Shown here: piece after piece, positions 3,510-55,054 of the stretch | Layout of the letters: every line of letters begins with the position of its first letter | How positions within the stretch are numbered: the first letter of the stretch is position 1 | Assembly (NCBI GenBank): GCA_002413835.1 | Contig: DHXU01000009.1 | Span: forward strand, 14,626-78,625 | Origin: Candidatus Saccharibacteria bacterium UBA5148 | Lineage (GTDB): Bacteria > Patescibacteriota > Saccharimonadia > Saccharimonadales > UBA4665 | Direction of reading: 5' to 3' | Length of the DNA: 64,000 nt | Position numbers and translations under genes: made by a program | Notes under the pieces: generated by a model | What the model saw: only the letters and a program-made list of their open reading frames with translations | Databases searched by the model: none | Told to the model about the DNA's origin: nothing

Positions 3510-3998
3510 CTAGCGGGCCGAATGTACTTGCCCGGATGCTAACCGAAACAAAAATAATTGCGAGAAGTTTGCGAGACAGGGTGTTGCAGAAAACCTGACA
3601 GCAATACCAAAGGTTTGGGCTATAAGCCCGAGACGCCTTGAGCGTGCTGGAGTCGTCGTAAACGCCAAGATTTCCAGAAGCACAGTCGCATGTATCTCTG
3701 AAATCATGTGGGTACCCGTCGTGTCATACCACGCCATGATTGCGGTGTCAGTCGCCAGCGTGGCGCTCGTCCGCCAGTACGTGCGAGCGTAGTACCAGTG
3801 ATTCTGAACACCCGCGACGGTAGTATTGTTCCACTCGAGCGTCGCAAACGGGTTGGTCGCCATCGAGTAAGCCGCTGCTCCGCTGCGAACAGTGGTAGTT
3901 GAGATCCCGACCGTGCCCGATATCGCATTGAACTCAGCCGACGGAAAACTCGCGGCACTGAACTGTAACTCGGCGCCCGCTGTGGCTAGCCGCGCCAT
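3510..3998 (-). CDS. Hypothetical protein, possibly a decayed jelly-roll-like fragment
   Basis: 162-aa ORF whose ATG overlaps the upstream stop (TAATG coupling at 3996-4000). The first ~100 aa look protein-like (WYYARTYWRTSATLATDTAIMAWYD). The last ~55 aa look like random read-through. Confidence 0.3.
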   Translation of the reverse strand: MARLATAGAELQFSAASFPSAEFNAISGTVGISTTTVRSGAAAYSMATNPFATLEWNNTTVAGVQNHWYYARTYWRTSATLATDTAIMAWYDTTGTHMISEIHATVLLEILAFTTTPARSRRLGLIAQTFGIAVRFSATPCLANFSQLFLFRLASGQVHSAR

Positions 3999-5221
3999 TA
4001 GTTGGCATATCCTGGTGAGACGTAGTGGTAGCCGGCGACACCGACACCTCCCGTAGTGTTGCCAAGAACGAAATCGCCGCCAGGGGGCGTGCCCTGCTTC
4101 AGTCCACCCGTGATTTTCAGAGCGCTACTGTTGGTGTTGGGGAAGGTGTAAGTATTAGCGCCAGCGTTCCAAACTCCCTTGCAACCAGCGGGCTGATCGG
4201 TATCGGGCCATATACTGTTTATTGAAAGCGTGCCGTTCGGTTCAGCCGCCCAGTCATTGGTTAAGCTGACGCCCCCGGTCGTGCATTCCGGCGGGCCGCC
4301 AGTGATCCACCACGTGTATTTGTCGCCAATATTACCGGTGTGCGGGTTGTTGAGCGCGTAGATGTCAACATTGCGAATGTCGTATGAAGGCTCGGTGCCG
4401 GGACCAAAAGTCCCTGCGGTGTAGTCCGGGTCTATGTTCATCCCCTGACAGTCGCTCGAGCCAGTCAGTCCATCGATCTTGACGGCCGAGTTGGGGATTC
4501 CATAGAACTGGATGATGTCGGCGTGATTGGTGTCACCCGGATCGCATCCGTCTATCCTGTCGATACGAATGTTTTCCAGAGTGATGTTCGTCTGATTGGG
4601 ACTTGGCAGCGCGTATGCGTCAATCCCGTCTCCTGTGTAAGAGGCTGCAGTGTTCGCCAGCGGACTCGTCTGATTCTTGATCCAAACGCCTTCGATGAAA
4701 ACCATGCCTCCCGTGCCGCTCTCACGTGCTACCTGGATGCCCATGCAGGCAGTGACCGCTGCCGTGCAGCTCGGGGTGAAGTCGATCTCTCCGCCGATGA
4801 TTTGGACGTTGTGGCCGCCATTGATTGTGATGCCCCCGACGAGCGATCCCGATGCGGGAAGGTGGATGCGATAGTCGACGTTGGGACTGAGCGATGGAGT
4901 TTGGTGCGAACCCGTGTTCGTGAGGGTAAGATCGATGCAGGTGTCGCCGTCCGCGCCCCCGCACACCGGCGGCGCCCATGAGAGCAGGGTTGTGCCCGAT
5001 CCAAACTTCACAGACTGGCCGCCGCTGGCTGTCGAGTCAGTTTGGAGGGTGGCACCACCAGTTAACGTACCACTCTCGGCTTCGAATGCGCCGCTAGGGG
5101 TAGCGGCATGAGAATATAAGTGTACTGCGGTTCCGGTTGTGGCCACTGTCAGAACGACCAGGGCCGCAATTAATAGCTGGCGCCGGTTCGGCGGTTGGTT
5201 ACTTATATACTGCTTAATCAT
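3998..5221 (-). CDS. Secreted protein with N-terminal anchor, EAExG module and probable parallel beta-helix body
   Basis: 407 aa. It has a hydrophobic N-terminal helix (LLIAALVVLTVATTGTAV), the module FEAESGTLTGGATLQTDSTASGGQSVKFGSG, then G/N/T-rich repeats (GGITINGGHNVQIIGGEIDF, ITLENIRIDRIDG) typical of pectin-lyase-fold proteins. Confidence 0.6.
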   Translation of the reverse strand: MIKQYISNQPPNRRQLLIAALVVLTVATTGTAVHLYSHAATPSGAFEAESGTLTGGATLQTDSTASGGQSVKFGSGTTLLSWAPPVCGGADGDTCIDLTLTNTGSHQTPSLSPNVDYRIHLPASGSLVGGITINGGHNVQIIGGEIDFTPSCTAAVTACMGIQVARESGTGGMVFIEGVWIKNQTSPLANTAASYTGDGIDAYALPSPNQTNITLENIRIDRIDGCDPGDTNHADIIQFYGIPNSAVKIDGLTGSSDCQGMNIDPDYTAGTFGPGTEPSYDIRNVDIYALNNPHTGNIGDKYTWWITGGPPECTTGGVSLTNDWAAEPNGTLSINSIWPDTDQPAGCKGVWNAGANTYTFPNTNSSALKITGGLKQGTPPGGDFVLGNTTGGVGVAGYHYVSPGYAN

Positions 5222-6645: not shown

Positions 6646-8178
6646 TTACCAGGTCCAGTTGAGTGGAGAAATCAGTATTGCCATGTCGGCTGCACCGACA
6701 GTGCCATCGTGGTTGAAGTCAGCAGGAGCGTAGTTCTGGCCGTCATGGGAGATGAGCGAGGATAGATCGATGGCGTTGACGCGTCCATCACCGTTGACAT
6801 CCCCGTTACCTACCGTGGTAGAAGTCAGCGTCACACTGACAGCACCTGAGGTAGTCACAAGATTAGCCGCATCGTAGGCTTTGGCTGTCAGGCTATGAGC
6901 GCCGGCTACAAGACCGGTGGTAGCCCAGCTGTAAGCATATGGAGTGGCCGTATCTGTCGACTTCAGTGCACCGTCGACATAGAACTCGACTTTGGTTACT
7001 GCAACGTTGTCAGCGGCATTGGCAGTAATGTTCACGGCTGTGCCGACCGCAGTTGAGCTGCCGTTTGCTGGAGCGCTGATTGAGACAGTTGGAGCAGTCC
7101 CGTCCGTGACCGTGACGCCGACATTGGGCGAGGACGTGGAATTACCAGCGGCGTCGTAAGCTTTGGCTGTCAATGCATGCGCACCAAGAGTGCTTGCACC
7201 CGTTGTTACCCAGTTGTAGGTGTATGGTGATGTCGTGTCGGTACCCATCAAGGCCGTACCGGAGTAGAATTCAACTTTCGTAACTCCGACATTGTCGGTG
7301 GCAGTCGCAGCGAGCGCAACCGTACCACCGGTTGCGACACTTGTCGGACTGGCCGTGAAGGCTGAGATCGTTGGAGGCGTCGTGTCGGTATTACTTACGG
7401 TCACGCTGACCGCAGTACTTGTCCCGGCATTGCCCACTGTATCTGTAGCTCTGGCTGTAAGCGTATGCGTGCCATTTGTGGCCGTCGTAGTGTTCCAAAT
7501 GTAGCTGTAAGCAGAGGTGGTGTCGGTTGCAACGACGACGTTGTCGATAAGGAATTCTACCTTGGCAACACCGGAAGCGTCTGTCGCCGTAGCGCTTATA
7601 GTAACCGATCCAGTGACTGTAGTGCCAGCTGTTGGCGAACCGATCGATACGGACGGCGCAGTAATATCAGTGGACGCACAGTTATCACCAGTACCAGTAG
7701 GGACACAGGAGGTATCAACCAGCAGCAGGACACGGTCGAGCTGAACGTCTGCTTCTTTACCGGTGTAGATGAGCGTATGCGCTCCAGCCGTCAACGTAAC
7801 GTTGATAGTTGAAGTCGTCGTAGCATCCTGATAATTGACCCAGGTCCAGGCTCCAGCCGGGATAGCGGTAGAATCGCCAACGTTATAGGCACAAGCACCG
7901 GCGTCGGTCTGGAAGTAGTAGGAATTTGCGGTCGTGTTAGGCGCCTTGATGCGGCTCCATACCCGGTATGTGCCGGCAGTTACCACGTTTATAGTCTGCT
8001 TGACCTGGCCGTAGGTGGTCGGTGGTGCAGTCGCCAAACAGGCAGCCGAAGCCGTGCCGGTGAATGGATTATAGCGTGCAGGAGCATACGAAAGAAGTCC
8101 TCCCATCAACACAAGGCTGAGCACGAATAAAGGCAATGTTTGTATCTTGATTGACCGGTGTTTGAACAGTGTTTTCAT
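6646..8178 (-). CDS. Secreted protein: CBM-like jelly-roll, three Ig-like repeats and a C-terminal dockerin
   Basis: 510 aa with a signal anchor. It has three repeats of ~95 aa (VAKVEFLIDN.., VTKVEFYSGT.., VTKVEFYVDGA..) ending AHxLTAKAYDAA. The C-terminus GDVNGDGRVNAIDLSSLI ... DFNHDGTVGAADMAILI matches the duplicated type I dockerin calcium-binding repeat. Confidence 0.75.
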   Translation of the reverse strand: MKTLFKHRSIKIQTLPLFVLSLVLMGGLLSYAPARYNPFTGTASAACLATAPPTTYGQVKQTINVVTAGTYRVWSRIKAPNTTANSYYFQTDAGACAYNVGDSTAIPAGAWTWVNYQDATTTSTINVTLTAGAHTLIYTGKEADVQLDRVLLLVDTSCVPTGTGDNCASTDITAPSVSIGSPTAGTTVTGSVTISATATDASGVAKVEFLIDNVVVATDTTSAYSYIWNTTTATNGTHTLTARATDTVGNAGTSTAVSVTVSNTDTTPPTISAFTASPTSVATGGTVALAATATDNVGVTKVEFYSGTALMGTDTTSPYTYNWVTTGASTLGAHALTAKAYDAAGNSTSSPNVGVTVTDGTAPTVSISAPANGSSTAVGTAVNITANAADNVAVTKVEFYVDGALKSTDTATPYAYSWATTGLVAGAHSLTAKAYDAANLVTTSGAVSVTLTSTTVGNGDVNGDGRVNAIDLSSLISHDGQNYAPADFNHDGTVGAADMAILISPLNWTW

Positions 8179-33019: not shown

Positions 33020-33436
33020 TCAACCGATAATCTTTTCGATGTATTCAGCGTGTGTATCAGTTTTGAGATGCTTATAATCGGCGTACTGCAAGCTAGTTGG
33101 CGTTAATTGCAGCGGCATATAGCTGCCGGCTTTCAGTTTCTCGACTGGTGGCACCCAGGCATAGTCGCCTTTTGAGCGAAGGTCAGCGAACTTAGTGAAG
33201 AATATATCCATATACTGCTGCACAGGCACGGCAGATATCTTACCCGTTAGCTGAACTGTAGTTTGGCTGTCGCTGTCCGCAATAGTCAGTGCAGCCAGCG
33301 CCGTATTATCGATATTCTGGTACTTCAGCGTCTCAGCCCGTGTCACGAAATAGAAGTTAAAGTCCTCATCGGCAATATAGTATACAGCCGAACCCCACGG
33401 TGTGCCGTTATCTGATACGGTGGATAAGATTCCCAT
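33020..33436 (-). CDS. Pyridoxamine 5'-phosphate oxidase-like (general stress protein 26-type) FMN-binding protein
   Basis: The split-barrel-like N-terminus GILSTVSDNGTPWGSAVYYIADEDFNFYFVTRAETLKYQNI matches this family. The true start probably lies upstream (see findings). Confidence 0.6.
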   Translation of the reverse strand: MGILSTVSDNGTPWGSAVYYIADEDFNFYFVTRAETLKYQNIDNTALAALTIADSDSQTTVQLTGKISAVPVQQYMDIFFTKFADLRSKGDYAWVPPVEKLKAGSYMPLQLTPTSLQYADYKHLKTDTHAEYIEKIIG

Positions 33437-33801
33437 CGGATGATGCCGTAAAAAGGCATGGACTTTTTGATGATCGTGAACTTGATGTGATTCTTTAATA
33501 GTAACTCCTTGATGGGTTAGCGATTTTCAGCAAGCGACGCCTAGTGTATTCTCTGTCGTCAAACACTATGTCATCGATATCCAAACGAGAGATGGATGGT
33601 ACTTTCCCGGACGATTTACTGGTTACCACGTTCACTCCCCCTTGTTATACCATAGCTCATTCACTTACTAGAATAACTGGTTTAATTGTCCAAGTATGTG
33701 CACAGACGCACGCAACTTACAATTTCGTAACAAGACTCTATCATGCGCATAGTTTATGCTTACAGGGGGTACATAGACCAAGCACACTAGCGGCCGCTCT
33801 G

Positions 33802-34494
33802 TTACGCCGGCAGCATGCCTCTGACTCTTGCCAGGAAGTCAGCTCCGCTATCCAAATCAAGTGACATCTGTCTAGGAATTATTACGTGAGCCATCTGTCT
33901 ATACAGGCCACTTCTGCGGCTTAGAAGCTCTGGGTAGCAACGAGCCAATGCGTCTTGTGGAGACTTGTCAGTTTGCCCACAGTAAACATCGCCCCACACT
34001 ACCGGTTTTGGCTCTGCAATATACAACTCAAACATCGCCTGTTGCATTTCTGCAGTAGCTTCCAAATAGACAACCGTACTATGACTTGCTAAGTCTTCGC
34101 AGAGTTCACCGCTTGTATGGACAACACTACCGGTTGTGTCCACGACTATGTTCCCGCCTAAGGGTGGCTGTTTAAGCCGGTCAATCGTGCGGCGGATGGT
34201 CATAGTTTCAAGGTCGAGATATGTTTGCTGGTTTGCCGCAAAGCGTAAATCGTGCGGCTGCCCCATCCATTTTGCCACGTCCGTGATACCGCCATTAAGC
34301 CCTGCTTCTTGCAGTACAGTTCCGAGCTCGGCCTCTATTAGATCATCACAACCTATAACGCTAAAACCCTCGGTATGTGTTAGGCTTGTTGACCAAAATG
34401 ACTTACCGACATTAGACATGCCGACCAGCGTCAAAGCTAGCTCTCCGGCTTCTCGTCGTTCATCAAATTCGCGTTGTGTTATGGTTTCAGCCAT
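33802..34494 (-). CDS. Shikimate-kinase-like P-loop kinase
   Basis: Walker A LVGMSNVGKS, then VIGCDDLIE and VVDTTGSVV...VVYL. The layout resembles the AroK/gluconate kinase family. Confidence 0.5.
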   Translation of the reverse strand: MAETITQREFDERREAGELALTLVGMSNVGKSFWSTSLTHTEGFSVIGCDDLIEAELGTVLQEAGLNGGITDVAKWMGQPHDLRFAANQQTYLDLETMTIRRTIDRLKQPPLGGNIVVDTTGSVVHTSGELCEDLASHSTVVYLEATAEMQQAMFELYIAEPKPVVWGDVYCGQTDKSPQDALARCYPELLSRRSGLYRQMAHVIIPRQMSLDLDSGADFLARVRGMLPA

Positions 34495-34530
34495 ATGTAA
34501 ACTCTATAGACAACTAGTTAGGACTCGAAC

Positions 34531-34788
34531 CTAGCCATACAGTTGGGAATGAGTGCCAATTTTGTCAAAAATTGCTTCGTTTTCCCTCTGCAGATACAGT
34601 GCTCGATAATCGCGGGTTATATTGATGCTCCTGTATAACGAATATCTCCCTCTGAGCGCATGATTGCGAAGCCTAGGATGAAGCGGATTGTCCCTAAACA
34701 GCGTGATATGTTCATATAGCTGCAGCTGTAATTTCGTAGACAATTTCTCTGCTTGTTTTACAAACTCTTTCGAGTAGGTGATTTTCAT
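34531..34788 (-). CDS. Type II toxin, RelE/YafQ/ParE superfamily
   Basis: 85 aa: ...LFRDNPLHPRLRNHALRGRYSLYRSINITRDYRALY..., the typical RelE-fold C-terminal pattern. It overlaps the antitoxin stop by 4 nt. Confidence 0.8.
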   Translation of the reverse strand: MKITYSKEFVKQAEKLSTKLQLQLYEHITLFRDNPLHPRLRNHALRGRYSLYRSINITRDYRALYLQRENEAIFDKIGTHSQLYG

Positions 34789-35072
34789 TTTAGTTTAAGC
34801 TTGTTGGCCAAAAAATTGAGTGCTTCGTCGTTATTCTCAAACTTATAGTAGTCTCCAGCCTCAATCTGCTTGCGAGAAGCCGCCAACTCTTTCGCTGTCT
34901 TGGCGTTCGGGACTTCAGGCACATCGAAGGTAACGCTTTGCTCAGCCGCAAAACGTCGGAGCTCATTATTTAAAACAGCACTCACACTAATCCCAAGCTT
35001 ATCTGCAGCTTTTGCGGCAAGTATCTTTAGCTCAGGATCAGTCTTTAAATTAATGACCGCATATTTACTCAT
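34785..35072 (-). CDS. Type II antitoxin, RelB/DinJ family
   Basis: 95 aa with a ribbon-helix-helix-like N-terminus INLKTDPELKILAAKAADKLGISVSAVLNNELRRF. It lies directly upstream of and overlaps the toxin gene. Confidence 0.75.
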   Translation of the reverse strand: MSKYAVINLKTDPELKILAAKAADKLGISVSAVLNNELRRFAAEQSVTFDVPEVPNAKTAKELAASRKQIEAGDYYKFENNDEALNFLANKLKLK

Positions 35073-36537: not shown

Positions 36538-37635
36538 CTACTTGTACATGCTGAAGGTGCCGTTGGTCTTGTATTTAGCAAACCCGTAATCGCTGTTGTC
36601 TTTGATATTGCTGGTTTTGCATGACAAGTCCTTAGTTTGTTCCATCAGGTCTGAATAGTCTCCTGGCAGGAAGTCCAATGGGTTGGCGGTGTGCCAGGGG
36701 TTAGCATAGGTTCCGAAATACGTTGCACTATCGCTGATGCCGAAATGCAGATGCGGCTGGCCGGGCGCGCCGACTTCGCCAGAGGTGCCGATGCGCTGGC
36801 CTTTCGTCACCGTTGCGCCGTTATTGACGGTTATCGACGACATATGTTCAAAGACGGCGTAGAGGGTTTTGCCAGTGGCAGCATTCGTGCCGGTGTTGAT
36901 AATCATTGTATTGAAGCCGTCGCTATACTTACCAACAACTTTGCCAGCATGCGGAGCATAGACCGGTTTATAACTAACGCCAATGTCCATGGCTGCGTGG
37001 TAGCTTTGCCTGACAGAATAATAATGCAGCCAGCACTGTGTCAAGCCAGCAGCCGGATTGGTAATATCCGCAACATTTACCGGCCACGTCCAATCCGATA
37101 CCGGCGCAGTGGCAGTTTTGGTAACGGGCGTACTCTGGTGGCCGGTCGTGTCGTAGGAAACAATCGTGTAGGTGTAGGTCGTCCCTTGCTTGACGACCGT
37201 ATTTTCGTATGTCGTACCAGTTGGCGAGGCGTATGGATTGGTCGTCGTATCAGGTGCTGTTGTGCCGATGCTACGCCAGAATCTATAACCAGCTAGCTTA
37301 CAGTTGGCAGCTGCTTTGCCGGCTGTCCAGGTCATCGAGATACTCGGCTTCACAGTACCTGTTAGCACATAGCTGCCGGGCGGAGTCGGTGCGACAGTAC
37401 ATGGAGGGCTCGCAAAAGTTATAGCACTCCCGTTTGACGCTGCCACGTCGGGGACCACCTTGGCAGTGCCGCTGGGCGTGCCCTGCTCCGGCTCAGTCGA
37501 AATAACCGGTGTTGCAGCACGGCTGAGCAAGATGACGATCAGGCCAACGAAAGCGACCGCTGCAATGGCAACAATGGCCCCGAATAGCCACGTAGGGTTC
37601 GCGCGAAGCTTAAGCATATTACTACTATAGTACAA
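36538..37635 (-). CDS. Secreted M23 family metallopeptidase with Fn3-like domain
   Basis: N-terminal anchor and EPEQG module, an Fn3-like segment (YRFWRS...TYTYTIVSYD), then the M23 motifs HAAMDIG (HxxxD) and PHLHFGI (HxH). Confidence 0.8.
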   Translation of the reverse strand: MYYSSNMLKLRANPTWLFGAIVAIAAVAFVGLIVILLSRAATPVISTEPEQGTPSGTAKVVPDVAASNGSAITFASPPCTVAPTPPGSYVLTGTVKPSISMTWTAGKAAANCKLAGYRFWRSIGTTAPDTTTNPYASPTGTTYENTVVKQGTTYTYTIVSYDTTGHQSTPVTKTATAPVSDWTWPVNVADITNPAAGLTQCWLHYYSVRQSYHAAMDIGVSYKPVYAPHAGKVVGKYSDGFNTMIINTGTNAATGKTLYAVFEHMSSITVNNGATVTKGQRIGTSGEVGAPGQPHLHFGISDSATYFGTYANPWHTANPLDFLPGDYSDLMEQTKDLSCKTSNIKDNSDYGFAKYKTNGTFSMYK

Positions 37636-48390: not shown

Positions 48391-50394
48391 ATGACTACAC
48401 GCCTCCGGTCTATCCTGTTGGTTGGGCTTGCAATACTACTGATCGTGTGCGCCAGTTACTTTGCGTGGCGCAGTCATGCGTCCACAGCAGCGCCGACGCA
48501 GTTGACTGTCAGTCAGAAAGCCGCCGATGCCCTGCCCCGCCGGTCTCCGAACATACCGCATCCACTGCTGGCGGCCGGCCTGCTGCCACCGACCAACAAA
48601 TGGTATAGTTCGCTGGCCTTTTCTGCACAGCACCAGCCGGTCTATATCTATCCACTGACGTACGCTCCGACCGATACCGGATTCAGTATCAGTAACCCGC
48701 CGATTGTCAGTAGCGCCGGGGCTATCTTCGGCAGCCATGTACCTGATGTCAGTGTCAACCTTGGCACGGCCCGGCATATTGTGCAGGCATACGACGATCT
48801 GTCGGTAACTGTCGGGCAACAGGATGCGGCTGGCGCAACCACAGCAACCACCCGGATAACCCAGGGCTCGCCGTTTGCCTTTACTGAATTACGACAGGCC
48901 GGTTCTGTCACAGTCAGCGTACTCGGGACTGTCACGGCACGCAGTGCCCAGACATATCTCCTGACGGTCGGCGAACGACACTATGGTCTATACACCACGG
49001 CGCCGGCCAGCGTGCATGGCCAGACGCTGGATATTGATGGCAAAAAGGGTGGCATCGTGACCGTTTTTACACTACCGGCCGGAGCGAATCAGCAGCTGTA
49101 TTTTGATGCTGCCTCCCACCCGATTACCAGCACCAGCGTTACTTATAAGACGACGAATTCGGCCATTACAACCGACTATGTCATGTCAGCCGGCGGCAAA
49201 AAGACCCTATTCGCCGCGACTCCAACGATGCATATCGATGGACAGCCGACAGGTGGTACATTTACGACACTACTCGGCAAACAGCCGGTATACAGCGGCA
49301 CGAGCTTCAGCGACCGGCAGGATGCCCCTGCCATGCCGCCATCTGAACTTCCACTCGGCAATCTGACAGCCAGCCAGCGTACTGACCTCATCCAGAAGTT
49401 GGACAGTGATACCGCCAGCCTTAGCTTCACGCAGACCGACAGCTATTTCGGTGGTAAAGAACTGTACCGCGCCGCCAACCTGCTGCAGATTGCCGAAAGC
49501 CTACATCAGACCAATACTGCCGCCGTTATAAAAGCTAAGTTATCCGCCCGTTTCGACACCTGGCTGGAACCATCAGGTGCCCTGCACCGCGATACGCTGA
49601 GCTTTTATTACGACCCGAATTATCACGGCGTAGTCGGTCTGAAATCCAGTTACGGCTCGGATACATTCAATGATCATCATTTTCACTACGGTTATTTCAT
49701 GTATGCCGCGGCAATCCTGAGCAAATATGACAGCAGCTTTTCCAAAAAACACGGTGACATGATAAACCTTCTGATATCCGACATCGCCAGCAATGCTTCC
49801 AGCAGCCTGTTCCCGAAACTTCGAGTCTTTGATTCCTACGCCGGTCACAGCTGGGCTTCCGGCACTGGCGATTTTGCCGATGGTAACAACCAGGAATCCA
49901 GTTCTGAAGCCACCAATGCCTGGTACGGTATGTATCTCTGGAGCCAGGTAACCCATAATGCACCGCTGGCCTCTGAAAGCCGCTGGTTATACAGCCATGA
50001 AAGCCGCGCAGCTACCAATCAGTGGCTGTCCGTCAGCAGCCCTATAGCTGATGGCGTGCCCTATAGCCATCCTACATCCGGCATCGTCTGGGGCGGCAAG
50101 ATTGACTATTCGACATTCTTTAGTCCACGGCCCCAGGCCATCCTTGGTATCCAGCTGATTCCGATGAGCCCAGGACAGACCTATCTCCAAAACACGGCAA
50201 TCACCTCGAATATTACTTCGGCAGCACCAGCTCCAAAAGACCTCTCGGGGCAGTTTGATGATTACCTGGTTATGTATCAGGCACTTCATGATCCAGCGCA
50301 GGCGCTCTCGAATGCCACGCATATCAGCGGCCCTGATGACCTGGACAATGGCAACTCGCTGACCTATCTCTACGCCTGGCTCTACAGCCACTAA
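48391..50394 (+). CDS. Glycoside hydrolase family 81-like endo-beta-1,3-glucanase, membrane-anchored or secreted
   Basis: 667 aa with an N-terminal anchor. FNDHHFHYGYFMYAAA and DGNNQESSSEATNAWYG match the GH81 catalytic-region signatures as I recall them. It starts 3 nt after the HlyD-like gene. Confidence 0.7.
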   Translation: MTTRLRSILLVGLAILLIVCASYFAWRSHASTAAPTQLTVSQKAADALPRRSPNIPHPLLAAGLLPPTNKWYSSLAFSAQHQPVYIYPLTYAPTDTGFSISNPPIVSSAGAIFGSHVPDVSVNLGTARHIVQAYDDLSVTVGQQDAAGATTATTRITQGSPFAFTELRQAGSVTVSVLGTVTARSAQTYLLTVGERHYGLYTTAPASVHGQTLDIDGKKGGIVTVFTLPAGANQQLYFDAASHPITSTSVTYKTTNSAITTDYVMSAGGKKTLFAATPTMHIDGQPTGGTFTTLLGKQPVYSGTSFSDRQDAPAMPPSELPLGNLTASQRTDLIQKLDSDTASLSFTQTDSYFGGKELYRAANLLQIAESLHQTNTAAVIKAKLSARFDTWLEPSGALHRDTLSFYYDPNYHGVVGLKSSYGSDTFNDHHFHYGYFMYAAAILSKYDSSFSKKHGDMINLLISDIASNASSSLFPKLRVFDSYAGHSWASGTGDFADGNNQESSSEATNAWYGMYLWSQVTHNAPLASESRWLYSHESRAATNQWLSVSSPIADGVPYSHPTSGIVWGGKIDYSTFFSPRPQAILGIQLIPMSPGQTYLQNTAITSNITSAAPAPKDLSGQFDDYLVMYQALHDPAQALSNATHISGPDDLDNGNSLTYLYAWLYSH

Positions 50395-50672: not shown

Positions 50673-52817
50673 ATGAATTTTAGTAGTTTCAGAAAATACA
50701 TTGGCAAGGTTGATCATAAGCTACTGATTGTTATCGGCTTCTTCGTCGTTGCTGGCCTTATTTCGTTAGCTTTCACTAGAGCCGCATCGCAGTCTGTCGG
50801 TGTCGAGGCAGAAAACGGCGTGCTCGCCAAAGGCGCGACTTATGTGAGTAACTCATCCGCCTCCGGTGGCAGCGCAATCGCGTTTGGATCGAGCAGTAGC
50901 GGTCCGGGAACATTCCAGAAACTGGCATCCGTTCGAACCGCGCCGGCGCCATATTCTAAGCTGATTGGCGCAGGTGCTACGGCCGGAAGCCAGAAGTTTT
51001 ATCTGGGCTATGAAAACGTCAACCACCCTTTTGCTCTTGTCACTGTCGATCCAAAGAACAATTACGCAGCCACAACCTATATATCTCCGCTGCCGTCAGA
51101 ATTTACGGCTTCGCAGATGGCAGTAGGTGTGGATAACAACGTCTACATCGGCACTAAATCAACTACCAACGTGCATATTTTCAAGTTCACGACAGCCTCC
51201 CCGAAGTTAGTCGATCTCGGGGCGGCGCCGGTTGATATTCGGGCTTCTGTCAAACAGACATACATCTGGAATCTTACGGCTAGTCCCGTCGACCACCGCC
51301 TGTACGGTTGTACGTATCCATCGGCAGACCTCGTCAGCTATGGCCCCTCGGATCCTATTCCCCACCTTACTAATCTCGGGACGGTAGATAGTAGTAACCA
51401 GTACGGCCGCTACTGCGTAGCCGACCCGGCACATGCTTACATATATATCGGTACAGGAAGTATCAACCCCAAGATCGTGGCCTACAATATCCAGACCAAG
51501 CAGGTAACTGTCCTGAGTAGTGTGCCAGGTGCCGGTTTTGCCAGAGTCTGGCTCGGGAGCGACAATAAAATATACGGCACAAACGGGACGGGGCAGTTCA
51601 GTATCAGCAACGGCGTCGCAACTCCGGTTACGAAAACAACCACGGCGGCCTCGGCCTACGTATTCAGCAATGGCGACAAGATTGCCCTCAGTCCTGATAA
51701 TAATTCTGTCGTCGTGAAACACCCGGATGGGTCGCAGGATACACACCCCTACGCCTATGGCGGGGCATTCCCGACTATCTTCAGAGTCGCAGAGGGCCCG
51801 AACAATGAAATCTACGCCGGGACAGTCTTACCATTTTACTTAACCAAATACTCACCCACCGCGCCGGCTGCCGGACTGACCAACCTGGGCTATTTTGGGG
51901 GCGGAGAGCCCTATTCGATGCTTACCACCGGCAGTAAGCTGGCGATAGGAGCCTACTCGGCAGGCGCGCCACTGCTCACCTACGACCCGGCTCTGCCAGT
52001 TGTGCCGAATCCATATATCAGTCCGGCCTGTAGCGCCACTACCAACCCACCTAATCCGCAATGCATTCGTGATATTACCGGCTTGGACAGCGCACGCTCA
52101 TCCGATGATTTACGTCCCAAGCCACTGATAGCCGGACTCGATGGCAACTTATATACCGGTTCTGTCGGGCACTATGGGCAGACCAATGGCCCACTCGTAA
52201 AATGGAACCAGCCAAGCAACACCGCCTCCGCCTATTACCCTTTTCCTAATCTTGGTATCTCGTCGTTGGCATCGGTTCCTAGCTGTCAGGGAATAACCGG
52301 CACGAATACCTGCCTCGTCGCTGGGACGACCACCGACGTCGGAGGCGGAGCCACAGTCACCGCAACGACGTCGCCGCTGATTATCTGGAATACCGCGACG
52401 AACAGCATGGTCAAGCAGTTGGCTATTCCGGCCGTCTCCAATATCACCGAAATTACGTGCCTTATCCTGAATCCAGCCAATAATTACGTCTATGGTGTCG
52501 CGATTAATGCTACCGGGAGTTACTTATTTATCTTCAATCCAAAAACCGGCACTTTCGTCAATGGCGGTACCAAGCTGACATTTCCAGCCCCCCGTTACAA
52601 CAGCGTGGCCATCGGCTCCGACGGTAATATATGGGGAGTTTACAATACAGGAATATTCAAGATCGATGTCACGACCAACACCGCGCAGTCCGTGACGGCC
52701 GCACCCGTAGCTGTCACTACCGGATTTGCGCTCGTGAAAAACGCAACGAGCGGCGATAAGCTCTATTTTGGCTCGGATACAGATCTATATGTCTACAACA
52801 TCCCGGCCACGCACTAA
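50673..52817 (+). CDS. Secreted beta-propeller-like repeat protein, paralog A
   Basis: 714 aa with an N-terminal anchor and the EAENG module. About 9-10 blade-like repeats follow (LYGCTYPSADLVSYGP, IYIGTGSINPKIVAYN, IYAGTVLPFYLTKYSP, LYTGSVGHYGQTNGPLVKWN, IWGVYNTGIFKID, LYFGSDTDLYVYN). Confidence 0.7.
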   Translation: MNFSSFRKYIGKVDHKLLIVIGFFVVAGLISLAFTRAASQSVGVEAENGVLAKGATYVSNSSASGGSAIAFGSSSSGPGTFQKLASVRTAPAPYSKLIGAGATAGSQKFYLGYENVNHPFALVTVDPKNNYAATTYISPLPSEFTASQMAVGVDNNVYIGTKSTTNVHIFKFTTASPKLVDLGAAPVDIRASVKQTYIWNLTASPVDHRLYGCTYPSADLVSYGPSDPIPHLTNLGTVDSSNQYGRYCVADPAHAYIYIGTGSINPKIVAYNIQTKQVTVLSSVPGAGFARVWLGSDNKIYGTNGTGQFSISNGVATPVTKTTTAASAYVFSNGDKIALSPDNNSVVVKHPDGSQDTHPYAYGGAFPTIFRVAEGPNNEIYAGTVLPFYLTKYSPTAPAAGLTNLGYFGGGEPYSMLTTGSKLAIGAYSAGAPLLTYDPALPVVPNPYISPACSATTNPPNPQCIRDITGLDSARSSDDLRPKPLIAGLDGNLYTGSVGHYGQTNGPLVKWNQPSNTASAYYPFPNLGISSLASVPSCQGITGTNTCLVAGTTTDVGGGATVTATTSPLIIWNTATNSMVKQLAIPAVSNITEITCLILNPANNYVYGVAINATGSYLFIFNPKTGTFVNGGTKLTFPAPRYNSVAIGSDGNIWGVYNTGIFKIDVTTNTAQSVTAAPVAVTTGFALVKNATSGDKLYFGSDTDLYVYNIPATH

Positions 52818-52903
52818 ACCACCTGCCTGAGTCAATGGAAGCTCCAGCGTGTGTTTTCTGGCGTTTTTGCTATACTCAAAAGATAGAGCATTAGCGGTAC
52901 AGT

Positions 52904-55054
52904 ATGAGATTTGATAGATTCAGAAAATACATTGGTAAATTAGACCATCCAATACTGATTGTTGTCGGCCTGTTTGTCGCCGCCGGTCTTATTTCGTTAG
53001 CTTTCTCCAGAGCAGCATCCCAGTCTATCAGCGCTGAGGTAGAGAATGGAATACCGGCAAAAGGCGCAACTTTCGTGACCGATCCATTGGCTTCTAGTGG
53101 CAGTGCAGTAGCGTTTGGTTCGGGCACCGGTAATTCACCATTCCAAAAACTGTCATCGGTCAGGACTCCGCCGGCACCATATAATAAACTGATTGGTCCA
53201 GGCGTAACTACCGGAAGTCAAAAATTTTACCTGGGTTATCAAAACCTCAGCAACCCGTTTAGTTTTGTCGCGGTTGATCCAAAGAATAATTATACAGCCG
53301 TTACGTATACCTCGCCGCTGGCAACTGAATTTACGGCTTCGGGGATGGCAGTCGGCGTAGACAACAACGTCTACATCGGTACAAAATCCACGGTTAATAC
53401 GCACATTTTTAAGTTCACGACCGCCTCGCCGAAGCTCGTCGATCTCGGGGCAGTGCCAGTTGATATTCGGGCTTCTGTCAAGCAGACGTTCATGTGGGAT
53501 CTCACGGCCAGCCCTGTCGATCATCGCCTGTATGGCTGTACGCACCCGTCGGCAGACTTAGTCAGTTATGGCCCTTCGGATCCTATCCCACACATTAGCA
53601 ACCTAGGAACTGTAGATAGCAGTAATCAGTACGCCCGTTACTGCGTGGCCGACCCGCAGTACCCCTACATATACGTTGGCACGGGCAGTGTCAATCCAAA
53701 GATCGTTGCCTACAATATCCAGACCAAGCTGACAAAAGTACTGGGTAGCATGACGGGGGCAGGCTTTGCCACAGTTTGGCTTGGCAGCGACAACAAAATA
53801 TATGGCTACTATACTAATAACGGAACACAACATTTTAGTATCAGCAATGCGGTTCTAACCCCTGTGACGCAAACAACCAGTCGCTCCTCGGTCTACGCGT
53901 TTAGTAATGGCGACAAGATTGCCCTCAGCCCTGATAACGCTTCGGTCGTCGTCAAACATCCTGATGGGACCCAAGATACACGCGCGTATACTTACGGAGG
54001 GGCCTTCCCAAACATCTTTCGGCTGGCGCAGGGTCCAGACAATGCAATCTACGCCGGAACTGTCTTGCCATATTATTTAACCAAGTTTTCGCCCGCCGCT
54101 CCCGCCGCAGCCTTAACCAATCTCGGCTACCTTGGCGGTGGGGAGCCCTATTCTATGCTTGCCTCTGGTGGCAAGCTAGTGATGGGAGCCTATTCGGCTG
54201 GCGCTCTACTGCTCAACTATGACCCGTCTCTACCGGTTGCGCCGAATCCATACATAAATCCTAAGTGTAGTGCCACGACAAATCTGCCTAACCCACAATG
54301 CATACAGAATATTGCCGGCTTGGATAACGCTCGGCCATCCGGTGATTTACGCACAAAGCCACTGATTGCCGGACTCGATGGCAACTTATATACCGGATCT
54401 GTGGGGCACTATGGACAGACCAATGGGCCGCTGATTAAATGGAATCAACAAAGCAACACCGCCTCCGCCTATTATCCGTATCCTAATCTTGGTATCGCAT
54501 CGTTAGCGTCAGCTCCTGTCTGCCAAGGAATAACCACTGCGAATGCCTGCCTAATCGCGGGAACGACCACTGGAGTTGGAGGTGGCGCCACAGTCACCGC
54601 AACGACGTCGCCGCTATTTATCTGGAACACCGCGACGAACGCCATGGTCAAGCAGTTCACAATTCCGTCCGTCACCAATATCGTCGAGATTTCGTCTCTA
54701 ATCCTGAATCCGGCCACTAATTACATCTACGGTATTGCAAATAATACTCACGGTAGCTACTTATTCATCTTCAATCCAAAAACCGGCACATTTATTAACG
54801 GTGGCACTAAACTACCGTTCACCGCCCCCCTTTATAGCAGCGTTGCCATCGGCTCCGACGGTAACATCTGGGGAATCTACGGGACTGGAATATTCAAGAT
54901 TAATGTTACGACTAACACCGTTCAATCTGTGGCGACCGCACCTGTGGCTATCACGGCGGGGTTTGCCCTAGTAAAGAACGCGGCGAGCGGCGATAAGCTC
55001 TATTTTGGCTCATATGCAGATCTATATGTCTACAAACTCCCGGCCACGCCCTAA
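52904..55054 (+). CDS. Secreted beta-propeller-like repeat protein, paralog B
   Basis: 716 aa, collinear with paralog A along its whole length and with most residues identical by eye. It has the same upstream leader sequence. Confidence 0.7.
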   Translation: MRFDRFRKYIGKLDHPILIVVGLFVAAGLISLAFSRAASQSISAEVENGIPAKGATFVTDPLASSGSAVAFGSGTGNSPFQKLSSVRTPPAPYNKLIGPGVTTGSQKFYLGYQNLSNPFSFVAVDPKNNYTAVTYTSPLATEFTASGMAVGVDNNVYIGTKSTVNTHIFKFTTASPKLVDLGAVPVDIRASVKQTFMWDLTASPVDHRLYGCTHPSADLVSYGPSDPIPHISNLGTVDSSNQYARYCVADPQYPYIYVGTGSVNPKIVAYNIQTKLTKVLGSMTGAGFATVWLGSDNKIYGYYTNNGTQHFSISNAVLTPVTQTTSRSSVYAFSNGDKIALSPDNASVVVKHPDGTQDTRAYTYGGAFPNIFRLAQGPDNAIYAGTVLPYYLTKFSPAAPAAALTNLGYLGGGEPYSMLASGGKLVMGAYSAGALLLNYDPSLPVAPNPYINPKCSATTNLPNPQCIQNIAGLDNARPSGDLRTKPLIAGLDGNLYTGSVGHYGQTNGPLIKWNQQSNTASAYYPYPNLGIASLASAPVCQGITTANACLIAGTTTGVGGGATVTATTSPLFIWNTATNAMVKQFTIPSVTNIVEISSLILNPATNYIYGIANNTHGSYLFIFNPKTGTFINGGTKLPFTAPLYSSVAIGSDGNIWGIYGTGIFKINVTTNTVQSVATAPVAITAGFALVKNAASGDKLYFGSYADLYVYKLPATP

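Follow-up and report, generated by a model that had tools for sequence, protein, structure and literature searches.

The locus analysed here raises the question of why secreted proteins with different bodies should begin with the same short segment. Four such N-termini had been picked out by a first-pass annotation of the window (64,000 nucleotides from Candidatus Saccharibacteria bacterium UBA5148), and all four were recovered. Propeller A, on the forward strand, has a putative signal peptide at 50673..50783 (residues 1–37, with an n-region, an 18-residue hydrophobic core and small residues at -3/-1; it ends T-R-A, with predicted cleavage before A38), followed at 50784..50894 by the module itself, hereafter the tag (residues 38–74, ASQSVGVEAENGVLAKGATYVSNSSASGGSAIAFGSS; HMM score 70.9 bits), which aligns with positions 3–33 of an HMM of intact CBMs and is the equivalent of β1–β3 in a CBM35/6-type fold. 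Propeller B, also on the forward strand, has its predicted signal peptide at 52904..53014 (assigned from the ORF and the position relative to the module) and its tag at 53015..53125 (residues 38–74; 74.8 bits). On the reverse strand are a beta-helix protein of 407 aa (predicted signal peptide 5105..5221, residues 1–39, ending S-H-A; tag 4994..5104, residues 40–76, 70.8 bits, intact-CBM HMM positions 2–37) and an M23 peptidase (predicted signal peptide 37516..37635, residues 1–40, ending S-R-A; tag 37405..37515, residues 41–77, 74.7 bits; Peptidase_M23 domain at residues 212–303). The annotation called the four proteins unrelated; their bodies are indeed diverse, but they are not all unrelated, because propellers A and B are tandem paralogs.

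An HMM built from the four segments, the check that the annotation had proposed, identified 15 carriers in the 1.19-Mb genome (E<1e-3), four of them within the window. The match begins at residue 23–57, right behind a lone N-terminal hydrophobic helix, in 15/15. Carriers share one order of parts: a Sec-type signal peptide ending S-[H/R]-A↓A-[T/S]-P, the module of ~37 aa (consensus xxSxE[PA]ExGT..A..V.D.TASGGKAVxFG), a linker rich in P/S/T/G and then unrelated enzyme bodies, with the catalytic domain starting 10–60 residues after the tag. Among 1.84 billion public representatives a profile search (E<=1e-3) returned 1,333 protein clusters, defined at 50% identity, that contain the module; it is N-terminal in 137 of the best 151 of these 1,333 matches, and a hydrophobic helix lies just on its N-terminal side in 134 of the 137. 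This recurrence is far beyond chance, and the idea that secreted proteins of diverse kinds have one N-terminal unit in common is borne out. The cargo is mostly CAZymes and envelope hydrolases, much like the enzymes that bear dockerins, and includes secreted peptidoglycan peptidase, lyases, glycosidases and phosphoesterases.

The helix was at first taken for a transmembrane anchor. It is more likely a cleavable Sec signal peptide with a signal peptidase I site, because a positively charged n-region and a hydrophobic core are followed by small residues at -3 and -1: S/T occupies -3 in 92% of carriers and A occupies -1 in 100%, the residue between them being bulky (H/R/K; signal peptides were assigned by inspection and cleavage was placed by the -3/-1 rule). 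The (R/H)AA(S/T) motif, originally counted as part of the module, was rejected as such and reassigned to the signal-peptidase region, the same junction being present in this genome on cohesin proteins and on enzymes with dockerins, all of which lack the module. Sorting signals of the sortase or exosortase type (LPXTG, PEP-CTERM) pair a C-terminal motif with a TM helix and are cut by a dedicated peptidase that co-occurs with them; the module is N-terminal and no TM helix comes after it. A reading of E-P-E-N-G-T as an N-glycosylation sequon was also rejected, since the Asn occurs in just 40% of tags and position -2 is not acidic.

Searches of Pfam and NCBIfam, with whole proteins and with the isolated tag, found no family for the tag down to E<=10; NCBIfam holds no model for the module, in keeping with the annotation's remark that it matches no described sorting signal. 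A PDB sequence search with the tag profile gave only a non-significant match to a CBM35 (2wz8, E 0.54), a homolog search limited to the tag region returned only the query's own cluster, and a scan of the genomes of named species for a degenerate DNA pattern gave 2 matches in a species set that probably holds no close records.

Aligned to intact CBMs by hhalign, the tag scores 98.0% (E 2.4e-13) across intact columns 2–34, which upholds the suspected likeness to the first CBM6/35 strands: the module matches strands 1–3 of CBM35/6-type jelly rolls, and the remainder of the fold never follows. Likewise, internal partial matches of the profile in other organisms fall on the opening ~30 residues of the Pfam domains CBM_35/CBM_6. 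An intact single-chain CBM35 or CBM6 has ~120–140 residues and 11 strands and passes its family model; the tag, as the annotation held, is too short for a jelly roll. That a full-length CBM35 might lie hidden in the carriers, the annotation's own proposed refutation, was considered and rejected: linker and catalytic domain follow the tag too closely, the carriers have no Pfam CBM matches and PF16990 has no match in the genome even at E<=1.

The genome's best match to the intact-CBM HMM covers positions 40–133 only (E 6.5e-15). It belongs to a candidate partner, or acceptor, encoded on the reverse strand at 6646..8178 (510 aa; signal peptide, N-terminally truncated CBM35/6-like domain, three Big_7 Ig-like domains and Dockerin_1, as recognized by Pfam). 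The truncated domain (7669..8043, reverse strand; residues 46–170) is the equivalent of β4–β11, including the last-strand Asp of 'QLDRV'. It is homologous to intact CBMs over columns 41–144 (hhalign 99.3%, E 5.2e-20), AF2 models it with 8 strands at pLDDT 83, and the top 50 Foldseek matches to that model, in the PDB, are nearly all CBM6/CBM35; neither tag nor partner reaches any Pfam CBM threshold. The C-terminal type I dockerin lies at 6649..6804 (reverse strand; residues 459–510; PF00404, E 3.4e-13). A dockerin ends 11/11 complete N-terminal homologs of the partner, and the shortest forms (318–325 aa) consist of signal peptide, truncated CBM, linker and dockerin alone.

How do the two pieces relate? 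Placed on the intact CBM by hmmalign, the ranges of tag and partner do not overlap, and the split is the same for 8 tags and 12 partners. Each is thus homologous to CBM35/CBM6 for its own part of the fold. The arrangement is that of donor-strand systems: the acceptor is short of strands (8 against 11, with HMM coverage from position 40) and the donor segment is N-terminal on another protein (137/137). In an intact CBM35-type module β1 and β3 edge one of the sheets and β2 edges the other, and Ca2+ is held by both glutamates of E-x-E, by the main-chain carbonyl found 19 residues past the first Glu and by an Asp of the last strand (PMC9843283). The corresponding putative ligand positions are split over the two proteins: E11, E13 and S30 on the tags (93–99% conserved in the 137-carrier family) and the Asp on the partners (invariant D104, kept in 12/12).

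Two observations qualify the fit. The first 10–15 mature residues of the partner are ambiguous, since '...TGTASAAC(L/I)xT' may be either a signal-peptidase site or a vestigial ASGG/β3, and if the latter then the tag's β3 is redundant and the complement inexact. A lipobox reading of 'SAAC' was rejected because homologs carry the non-lipobox 'AQTC'. In addition, the partner may be stable and complete by itself, because AF2 folds it confidently in the tag's absence.

The tag was detected in 15 of 41 related genomes; the partner is present in the same 15/15 and in 0/26 tag-negative genomes (Fisher p 1.6e-11), and in a separate phylum-wide sample 4/4 genomes whose tag matches are strong also encode it. 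In 12/19 genomes the distance between the partner and a tagged gene is no more than ~6 kb. The genomes G013, G029 and G032 have clusters of tagged enzyme, partner and cohesin. Two proteins from other sources (P0037 and P0098) are fusions, with an N-terminal tag and an internal partner domain that has no adjacent β1–3 of its own. There are two counter-cases: G070 has a partner-like domain lacking β1–3 and no detected tags, and G227 has one weak tag match and no partner. Tag and partner are members, with the cohesins and dockerins, of a single accessory gene set, and may therefore co-occur because an island is inherited as a whole and not because they bind each other directly.

We consider it probable, though well short of certain, that tag and partner are a naturally split CBM, a tag/receptor pair that docks enzymes onto a cohesin–dockerin surface scaffold. 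The enzymes would be exported by Sec, and signal peptidase I would most likely cut between the two alanines of the S-[H/R]-A-A-[T/S]-P junction, leaving the tag at the mature N-terminus with the flexible linker behind it. The tag would be the β1–β3 front piece, with the E-x-E calcium ligands, of a CBM35/6-type β-sandwich divided between proteins, and the remaining eight strands, with the last-strand Asp ligand, would form the N-terminal domain of a secreted, dockerin-ended adaptor. By clipping onto the open edge of the incomplete sandwich the tag would restore the 11-strand fold, and probably the structural Ca2+ site too; the adaptor's dockerin would attach the loaded enzyme to the cell's cohesin scaffold proteins. 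If so, then tag and adaptor replace the function that a dockerin has on other enzymes. Genomes encode 1–2 partners and up to 25 tagged enzymes, and the enzymes would therefore have to compete for the partner or exchange on it. From among the options listed in the first-pass annotation (pro-peptide, strand-complementation or anchoring tag, processing or secretion signal) this favors the second, with a likely partner now identified, over the others.

The place of the tag within the cohesin–dockerin system bears on this model. Two beta-helix paralogs, 46% identical over 590 aa, differ only in that one carries a 45-aa N-terminal tag insert and the other a 55-aa C-terminal dockerin of the same type as the partner's. 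The tag thus shares with dockerins the habit of being appended to diverse CAZymes and is swapped for one in paralogs, although it lacks the duplicated ~22-residue Ca2+-binding loop-helix motif of a type I dockerin (PF00404); with a dockerin HMM, dockerins were found on 0/15 tagged proteins of this genome and 0/137 of the wider family. If tag and dockerin are interchangeable, then the tag might bind cohesin directly, for example by β-strand augmentation, as a new dockerin-type module, the truncated-CBM protein being just another dockerin-bearing member. Cohesins are present in 14/15 tag-positive and 2/26 negative genomes, and the present genome, with 6 cohesin proteins comprising at least 9 cohesin modules against 5 dockerins, has some cohesins that lack an obvious ligand. 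Nevertheless, we regard direct binding as unlikely: it leaves unexplained why the partner is exactly the missing part of the same fold, and the existence of tag–partner fusions. Moreover, the correlation of the tag is looser with cohesin, and with dockerin (13/15 tag-positive versus 4/26 negative genomes), than with the partner, and one genome (G019) has tag and partner with no detected cohesin.

A further alternative is that the tag needs no protein partner and is an autonomous mini-domain, a Ca2+-stabilised β-hairpin that binds glycan or cell wall (the cell's own or the host's) and so retains or targets the enzymes. The tag is CBM-derived and borne by carbohydrate-active enzymes, its conserved acidic residues and ASGG loop are Ca2+ ligands in CBM35, and AF2 predicts an all-β structure for it. 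The model is a single hairpin with a pLDDT of only 69, however, in which the E-x-E strand is unformed in isolation, and the sugar-binding sites of CBM6/35 are built largely from loops of that part of the fold which the tag lacks. An independent binder would also leave the perfect co-occurrence with the complementary half unexplained, and we give this alternative little credence. Equally doubtful is a third reading, in which the segment serves as a pro-peptide or as a leader optimised for export, or else is a relic without function, left over from a CBM that once stood at the N-terminus; it would have spread along with the signal peptide through duplication and recombination, to be removed or simply disregarded once outside the cell. 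Signal-peptide junction and tag do evolve as one unit (S-H/R-A-A-T-P is 75–100% conserved) and one paralog functions tag-less, yet residues E, E, G, A, D, A-S and F are near-invariant across the 1,333 clusters on unrelated bodies, which argues for selection acting on the segment itself, a single pro-peptide that inhibits or chaperones more than 30 different folds is implausible, and a relic would not be expected to co-occur with the complementary half, to be linked to it or to be fused with it.

The split-CBM docking model admits a bolder extension, which we put forward as speculation and under which the split CBM would represent a new class of device for protein–protein docking. The partner might be a sugar-binding module that works only once an enzyme's tag completes its fold, such that glycan targeting (of the host cell wall, for example) becomes conditional on docking, and proteins that are both tag and acceptor (P0037, P0098) might donate strands to one another head to tail and so build chains or scaffolds of a higher order. 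The result, for Saccharibacteria, would be a modular, exchangeable surface 'enzymosome' layered on the cohesin–dockerin system.

Comparisons to known systems place the pair more precisely. The relation to CBM35/CBM6 (PF16990, PF03422 and GH115_C-like relatives) is one of homology, with the tag corresponding to the first ~33 residues (β1–β3, E-x-E...D..ASGG), the partner homologous and structurally similar to the other eight strands, and the Ca2+-ligand positions conserved on both pieces; the difference is that here the fold is divided over two polypeptides, with numerous copies of the front piece spread over different enzymes and one or two of the back piece, on an adaptor. As in the cellulosome, a short module sits on many different carbohydrate-active enzymes of one genome, non-catalytic receptor or scaffold proteins are few, Ca2+ dependence is probable, and the tag, itself part of a cohesin–dockerin gene set, substitutes for dockerin on paralogous enzymes. 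Unlike a dockerin with its EF-hand-like helices, the tag is N-terminal, ~37 aa long and predicted all-β, and it is related neither to dockerin nor to cohesin in sequence or fold; binding would complete one fold rather than bring two complete domains into contact, and an additional adaptor layer would stand between enzyme and cohesin.

The proposed completion of an incomplete β-sandwich in trans by the N-terminal segment of another protein recalls donor-strand complementation and exchange in chaperone–usher pili, type V pili and TasA–TapA fibres (PMC10151520), and the two tag-plus-partner fusions could in principle link head to tail in the same manner. Here, though, three strands would be donated and not one, the fold is a CBM jelly roll and not an Ig-like pilin, the apparent purpose is enzyme recruitment rather than fibre building, and there is no chaperone or usher. 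In SpyTag/SpyCatcher and split GFP, too, a single domain has been cut into a small tag and a bigger 'catcher', which come together again; those pairs were engineered, and SpyTag becomes linked through a covalent isopeptide bond, whereas tag and partner would be a natural pair that associates non-covalently.

Should tag and truncated CBM bind each other, they would constitute a natural split-domain tag/receptor pair that loads many enzymes on one adaptor. In the literature searched we found no description of such a docking principle, and nothing relevant on dockerin, cohesin or CBM in Saccharibacteria/Patescibacteria or on split or trans-complemented CBMs; the distribution of tag and adaptor suggests a hitherto undescribed means by which enzymes could be clipped to a scaffold at the cell surface. 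Such a pair would be a clear evolutionary case of a domain split into interacting parts, and might give protein engineers a tag/catcher pair that is small, can be genetically encoded and may be switchable by Ca2+. In the sole genetically tractable Saccharibacterium one of the essential proteins has a dockerin domain (PMC10633639), and the wider system is therefore likely to be physiologically important. The model, if true, would give a role to more than 1,000 N-termini that now lack annotation and to a protein family labelled 'dockerin proteins of unknown function', and would explain how ultra-small epibiotic Saccharibacteria organise their secreted hydrolases at the surface, where the host is met.

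Four proteins in the window share an N-terminal segment of about 37 aa (the tag): propeller A (50673–52817, + strand), propeller B (52904–55054, + strand), a 407-aa beta-helix protein (3998–5221, − strand) and an M23 peptidase (36538–37635, − strand; Pfam). All four N-termini reported by the first-pass annotation were recovered as the starts of these ORFs. It had described the four bodies as unrelated, and their diversity holds; however, the two propellers are tandem paralogs (50673–55054), and the four therefore include one recent duplication. Each propeller retains its own signal peptide and its own tag. A scan of the full genome, also proposed at that stage, was done with an HMM built from the four segments: in the source genome (1.19 Mb, 52% GC, 12 contigs) 15 proteins were matched, in every case directly behind a single N-terminal hydrophobic helix. 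The carrier bodies are beta-helix proteins and phosphoesterases (three each), propellers and proteins of unrecognised fold (two each), and one each of an M23 peptidase, an alginate-lyase-like protein, a phage-RBD-like propeller, a LamG domain protein and a GH30-like protein. The segment falls outside every Pfam and NCBIfam model, even when queried in isolation at E≤10. In some tags a pair of Cys ('...DSC...FGC', '...NNC...FGGC') would tie the start of beta2 to the end of beta3; examples lie on contigs C8 (ORF 33051–35072) and C9 (minus strand, tag at 70344–70463).

The tag occurs in 15 of 41 related genomes, 7 of the 10 congeneric ones among them, and a single genome can have as many as 25 copies; in a phylum-wide sample it was found in only 5 of 250 other genomes, mostly of the same order or class. 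When 1.84 billion cluster representatives were searched exhaustively with the profile, 1,333 matched at E≤1e-3. The tag is N-terminal in 137 of the best 151 of these, and 134 of the 137 have a hydrophobic helix immediately upstream. The consensus runs from the h-region into S-[H/R]-A-A-T-P-x-x-S-x-E-[P/A]-E-x-G-T-[L/V], continues as x-x-[P/G]-A-x-x-V-x-D-x-T-A-S-G-G-K-A-V-x-F-G, and is followed by a P/S/T/G-rich linker. With S at −3, A at −1 and a bulky residue at −2, the leader junction matches the signal peptidase I rule. Most likely, then, the helix taken earlier for a TM anchor is a Sec signal that is removed, and cleavage would leave the tag at the mature N-terminus. Among 105 full-length carriers the cargo consists mainly of enzymes that act on carbohydrates or degrade the envelope (beta-helix, GH16, GH114, GH26, GH71, alginate and other polysaccharide lyases, GDSL esterases, phosphoesterases, M23). 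A degenerate DNA pattern of the tag had just two matches in named species genomes, in an uncultured bacterium MAG (L011) and a Candidatus Brocadiia MAG (L012), which may be the beginnings of intact CBMs in unrelated phyla.

Fourteen of the top matches are large proteins of other organisms, with several partial internal matches each that cover profile positions ~10–36, recur at 130–150-residue spacing and coincide with the beginning of Pfam CBM_35/CBM_6-type domains. The initial impression of a likeness to the first strands of CBM6/35 modules was therefore correct. Profile–profile comparison of 132 tags with 22 intact domains (probability 98.0%, E 2.4e-13) aligned tag columns 3–35 with intact columns 2–34. 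That the tag begins a whole CBM is ruled out: the catalytic domains of carriers start 10–60 residues downstream of it, and the genome yields nothing for PF16990 at E≤1. Given the 132-sequence alignment, AF2 returned for the tag alone only a moderate-confidence hairpin (pLDDT 69).

An HMM of 29 intact domains was searched against all ORFs of the genome. Carriers match it at positions 2–37 only. The top match is a non-carrier, a 510-aa protein encoded at 6646–8178 on the − strand (E 6.5e-15), which matches at positions 40–133 only. This protein, the partner, comprises a signal peptide, a CBM-like domain, three Big_7 domains and Dockerin_1. By hhalign, 12 homologs of the partner domain align with intact columns 41–144 (99.3%, E 5.2e-20), without overlap with the tag span (2–34). 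AF2 folds the domain well by itself, with the tag absent, into eight strands (pLDDT 83, pTM 0.76), and Foldseek comparison of this model with the PDB returned CBM6 and CBM35 modules almost exclusively. Intact modules of the CBM35 type are built of eleven strands, with beta1 and beta3 outermost in one sheet and beta2 outermost in the other (PMC9843283); because beta1–3 lie at sheet edges, their loss leaves a 4+4 sandwich open on one side. The structural Ca2+ is coordinated by the Glu pair of E-x-E, by a carbonyl that follows the first of them by 19 residues, and by an Asp of the last strand (PMC9843283). E11, E13 and S30 are retained in tags and the last-strand Asp in all partners; with the ligands so divided, the Ca2+ site would be whole only when tag and partner combine, and the proposed binding would depend on Ca2+.

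In most genomes the partner domain directly follows the signal peptide, and all 11 complete N-terminal partner ORFs have the dockerin at the C-terminal end. The shortest partners (318–325 aa) have, besides the signal peptide and the dockerin, nothing but the truncated CBM and a linker. The first 10–15 mature residues ('...TASAAC(L/I)xT') can be read either as the cleavage site or as a remnant of ASGG/beta3; on the latter reading the partner would lack no more than beta1–beta2. In partners, Cys is conserved close to the N-terminus ('AAC') and within 'GC', and there is a C-terminal 'SCVPTGTGDNC' pair as well.

The partner domain is present in all 15 tag-positive genomes and in none of the 26 tag-negative genomes (one-sided Fisher p 1.6e-11, the genomes not being phylogenetically independent). 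The positives cover 9 genera, and three same-genus genomes are negative. Because the components all form part of a single accessory gene set, shared inheritance accounts for some of the co-occurrence. In an independent phylum sample the partner was found in 4 of 4 genomes with strong tag matches. Partner-like domains occur in three further genomes, G206, G070 and G230. In G206, which is without tags, the domain (C4:26598–26966, locus L029) is apparently intact and unsplit, with its own E-x-E strand, '...CEGESANPLTAPLVKDGQSTYIYL...' preceding it in the same chain; this may be the ancestral state. In G070 the domain (C7:151290–151649, locus L028) lacks beta1–3 and lies inside a protein of at least 718 aa; no tags were found there at E≤1e-4, an exception to the rule, although they may be too diverged for detection. 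In 12 of 19 genomes the partner has a tagged gene no more than ~6 kb away. One or two partners stand against up to 25 tagged enzymes. Two library proteins, P0037 (1039 aa) and P0098 (1716 aa), combine an N-terminal tag with an internal partner domain that has no adjacent beta1–3 of its own, the truncated CBM lying several hundred residues downstream of the tag; such natural fusions could complement themselves or form head-to-tail links.

Cohesins (14/15 positives, 2/26 negatives) and dockerins (13/15, 4/26) follow the tag more loosely than the partner does. If the tag bound cohesins directly, there would be no explanation for why the protein that correlates best supplies precisely what the tag's fold lacks, and we consider this reading unlikely. 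The same fact goes unexplained if the tag is an autonomous Ca2+/glycan-binding mini-hairpin, which is improbable, or a pro-peptide, export leader or relic, for which the probability is similarly low.

Small as it is (1.19 Mb), the genome has a full cohesin–dockerin system. It encodes six cohesin proteins, among them one with three cohesins, FN3 domains and a dockerin, another with cohesin and dockerin, and a 194-aa protein with an N-terminal TM helix and one cohesin. Genes of this system lie outside the window (C6:14626–78625) as well, at C6 255818–262435, C8 751–3161 and C3 45133–45807; three cohesin genes are in tandem. Dockerins are limited to five proteins, namely the partner and two each of scaffold proteins and enzymes. 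Dockerins were found on none of the 15 tagged proteins of the genome and none of 137 carriers elsewhere. A 673-aa tagged beta-helix enzyme and its 677-aa paralog (46% identity across 590 residues) differ by just two indels: a 45-aa tag plus linker behind 'SHAATPxI' in the former, and a 55-aa C-terminal dockerin of the partner's type. An S-H-A-A-(S/T) junction is common to the tagged enzymes, the enzymes with dockerins and every cohesin protein checked (ORFs compared include C6 200993–203026, 228528–230150 and 255818–258820); it is infrequent among the remaining exported proteins of the genome; the partner has 'ASAAC' in its place, and a GH81 protein (window 48391–50394, + strand) just a loose 'SHAS'. 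Common descent of the leaders could account for this, as could a signal peptidase that is preferred or dedicated.

The homology and complementarity of the two pieces, their co-occurrence, linkage and fusion, the architectures and the swap between paralogs are observed; on this basis we consider it probable that enzymes are recruited to a cohesin scaffold through split-CBM docking to the adaptor. Tag and partner domain are homologous to CBM35/6, neither being a complete module. The working logic would be that of cohesin–dockerin, but the tag resembles neither in sequence or fold. The proposed binding mode is similar to donor-strand complementation in pili and TasA fibres, from which it differs in using three jelly-roll strands and in its supposed purpose, enzyme recruitment; engineered split tags offer a further likeness. 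A literature search found no description of such a system; a study of genetically tractable Saccharibacteria (Cell 2023; PMC10633639) mentions no more than an essential dockerin-domain protein. Provided that binding holds, the docking would be categorically new relative to published systems. Enzymes would be exported by Sec and cut at S-H/R-A|A; the tag (beta1–beta3) would dock where the eight-strand sandwich of the adaptor is open, restoring the CBM35/6 fold and its Ca2+ site; and the adaptor's dockerin would bind scaffold cohesins, with at least one scaffold protein membrane-anchored and the enzymes displayed at the surface. Tag and adaptor together would thus equal a dockerin in function.
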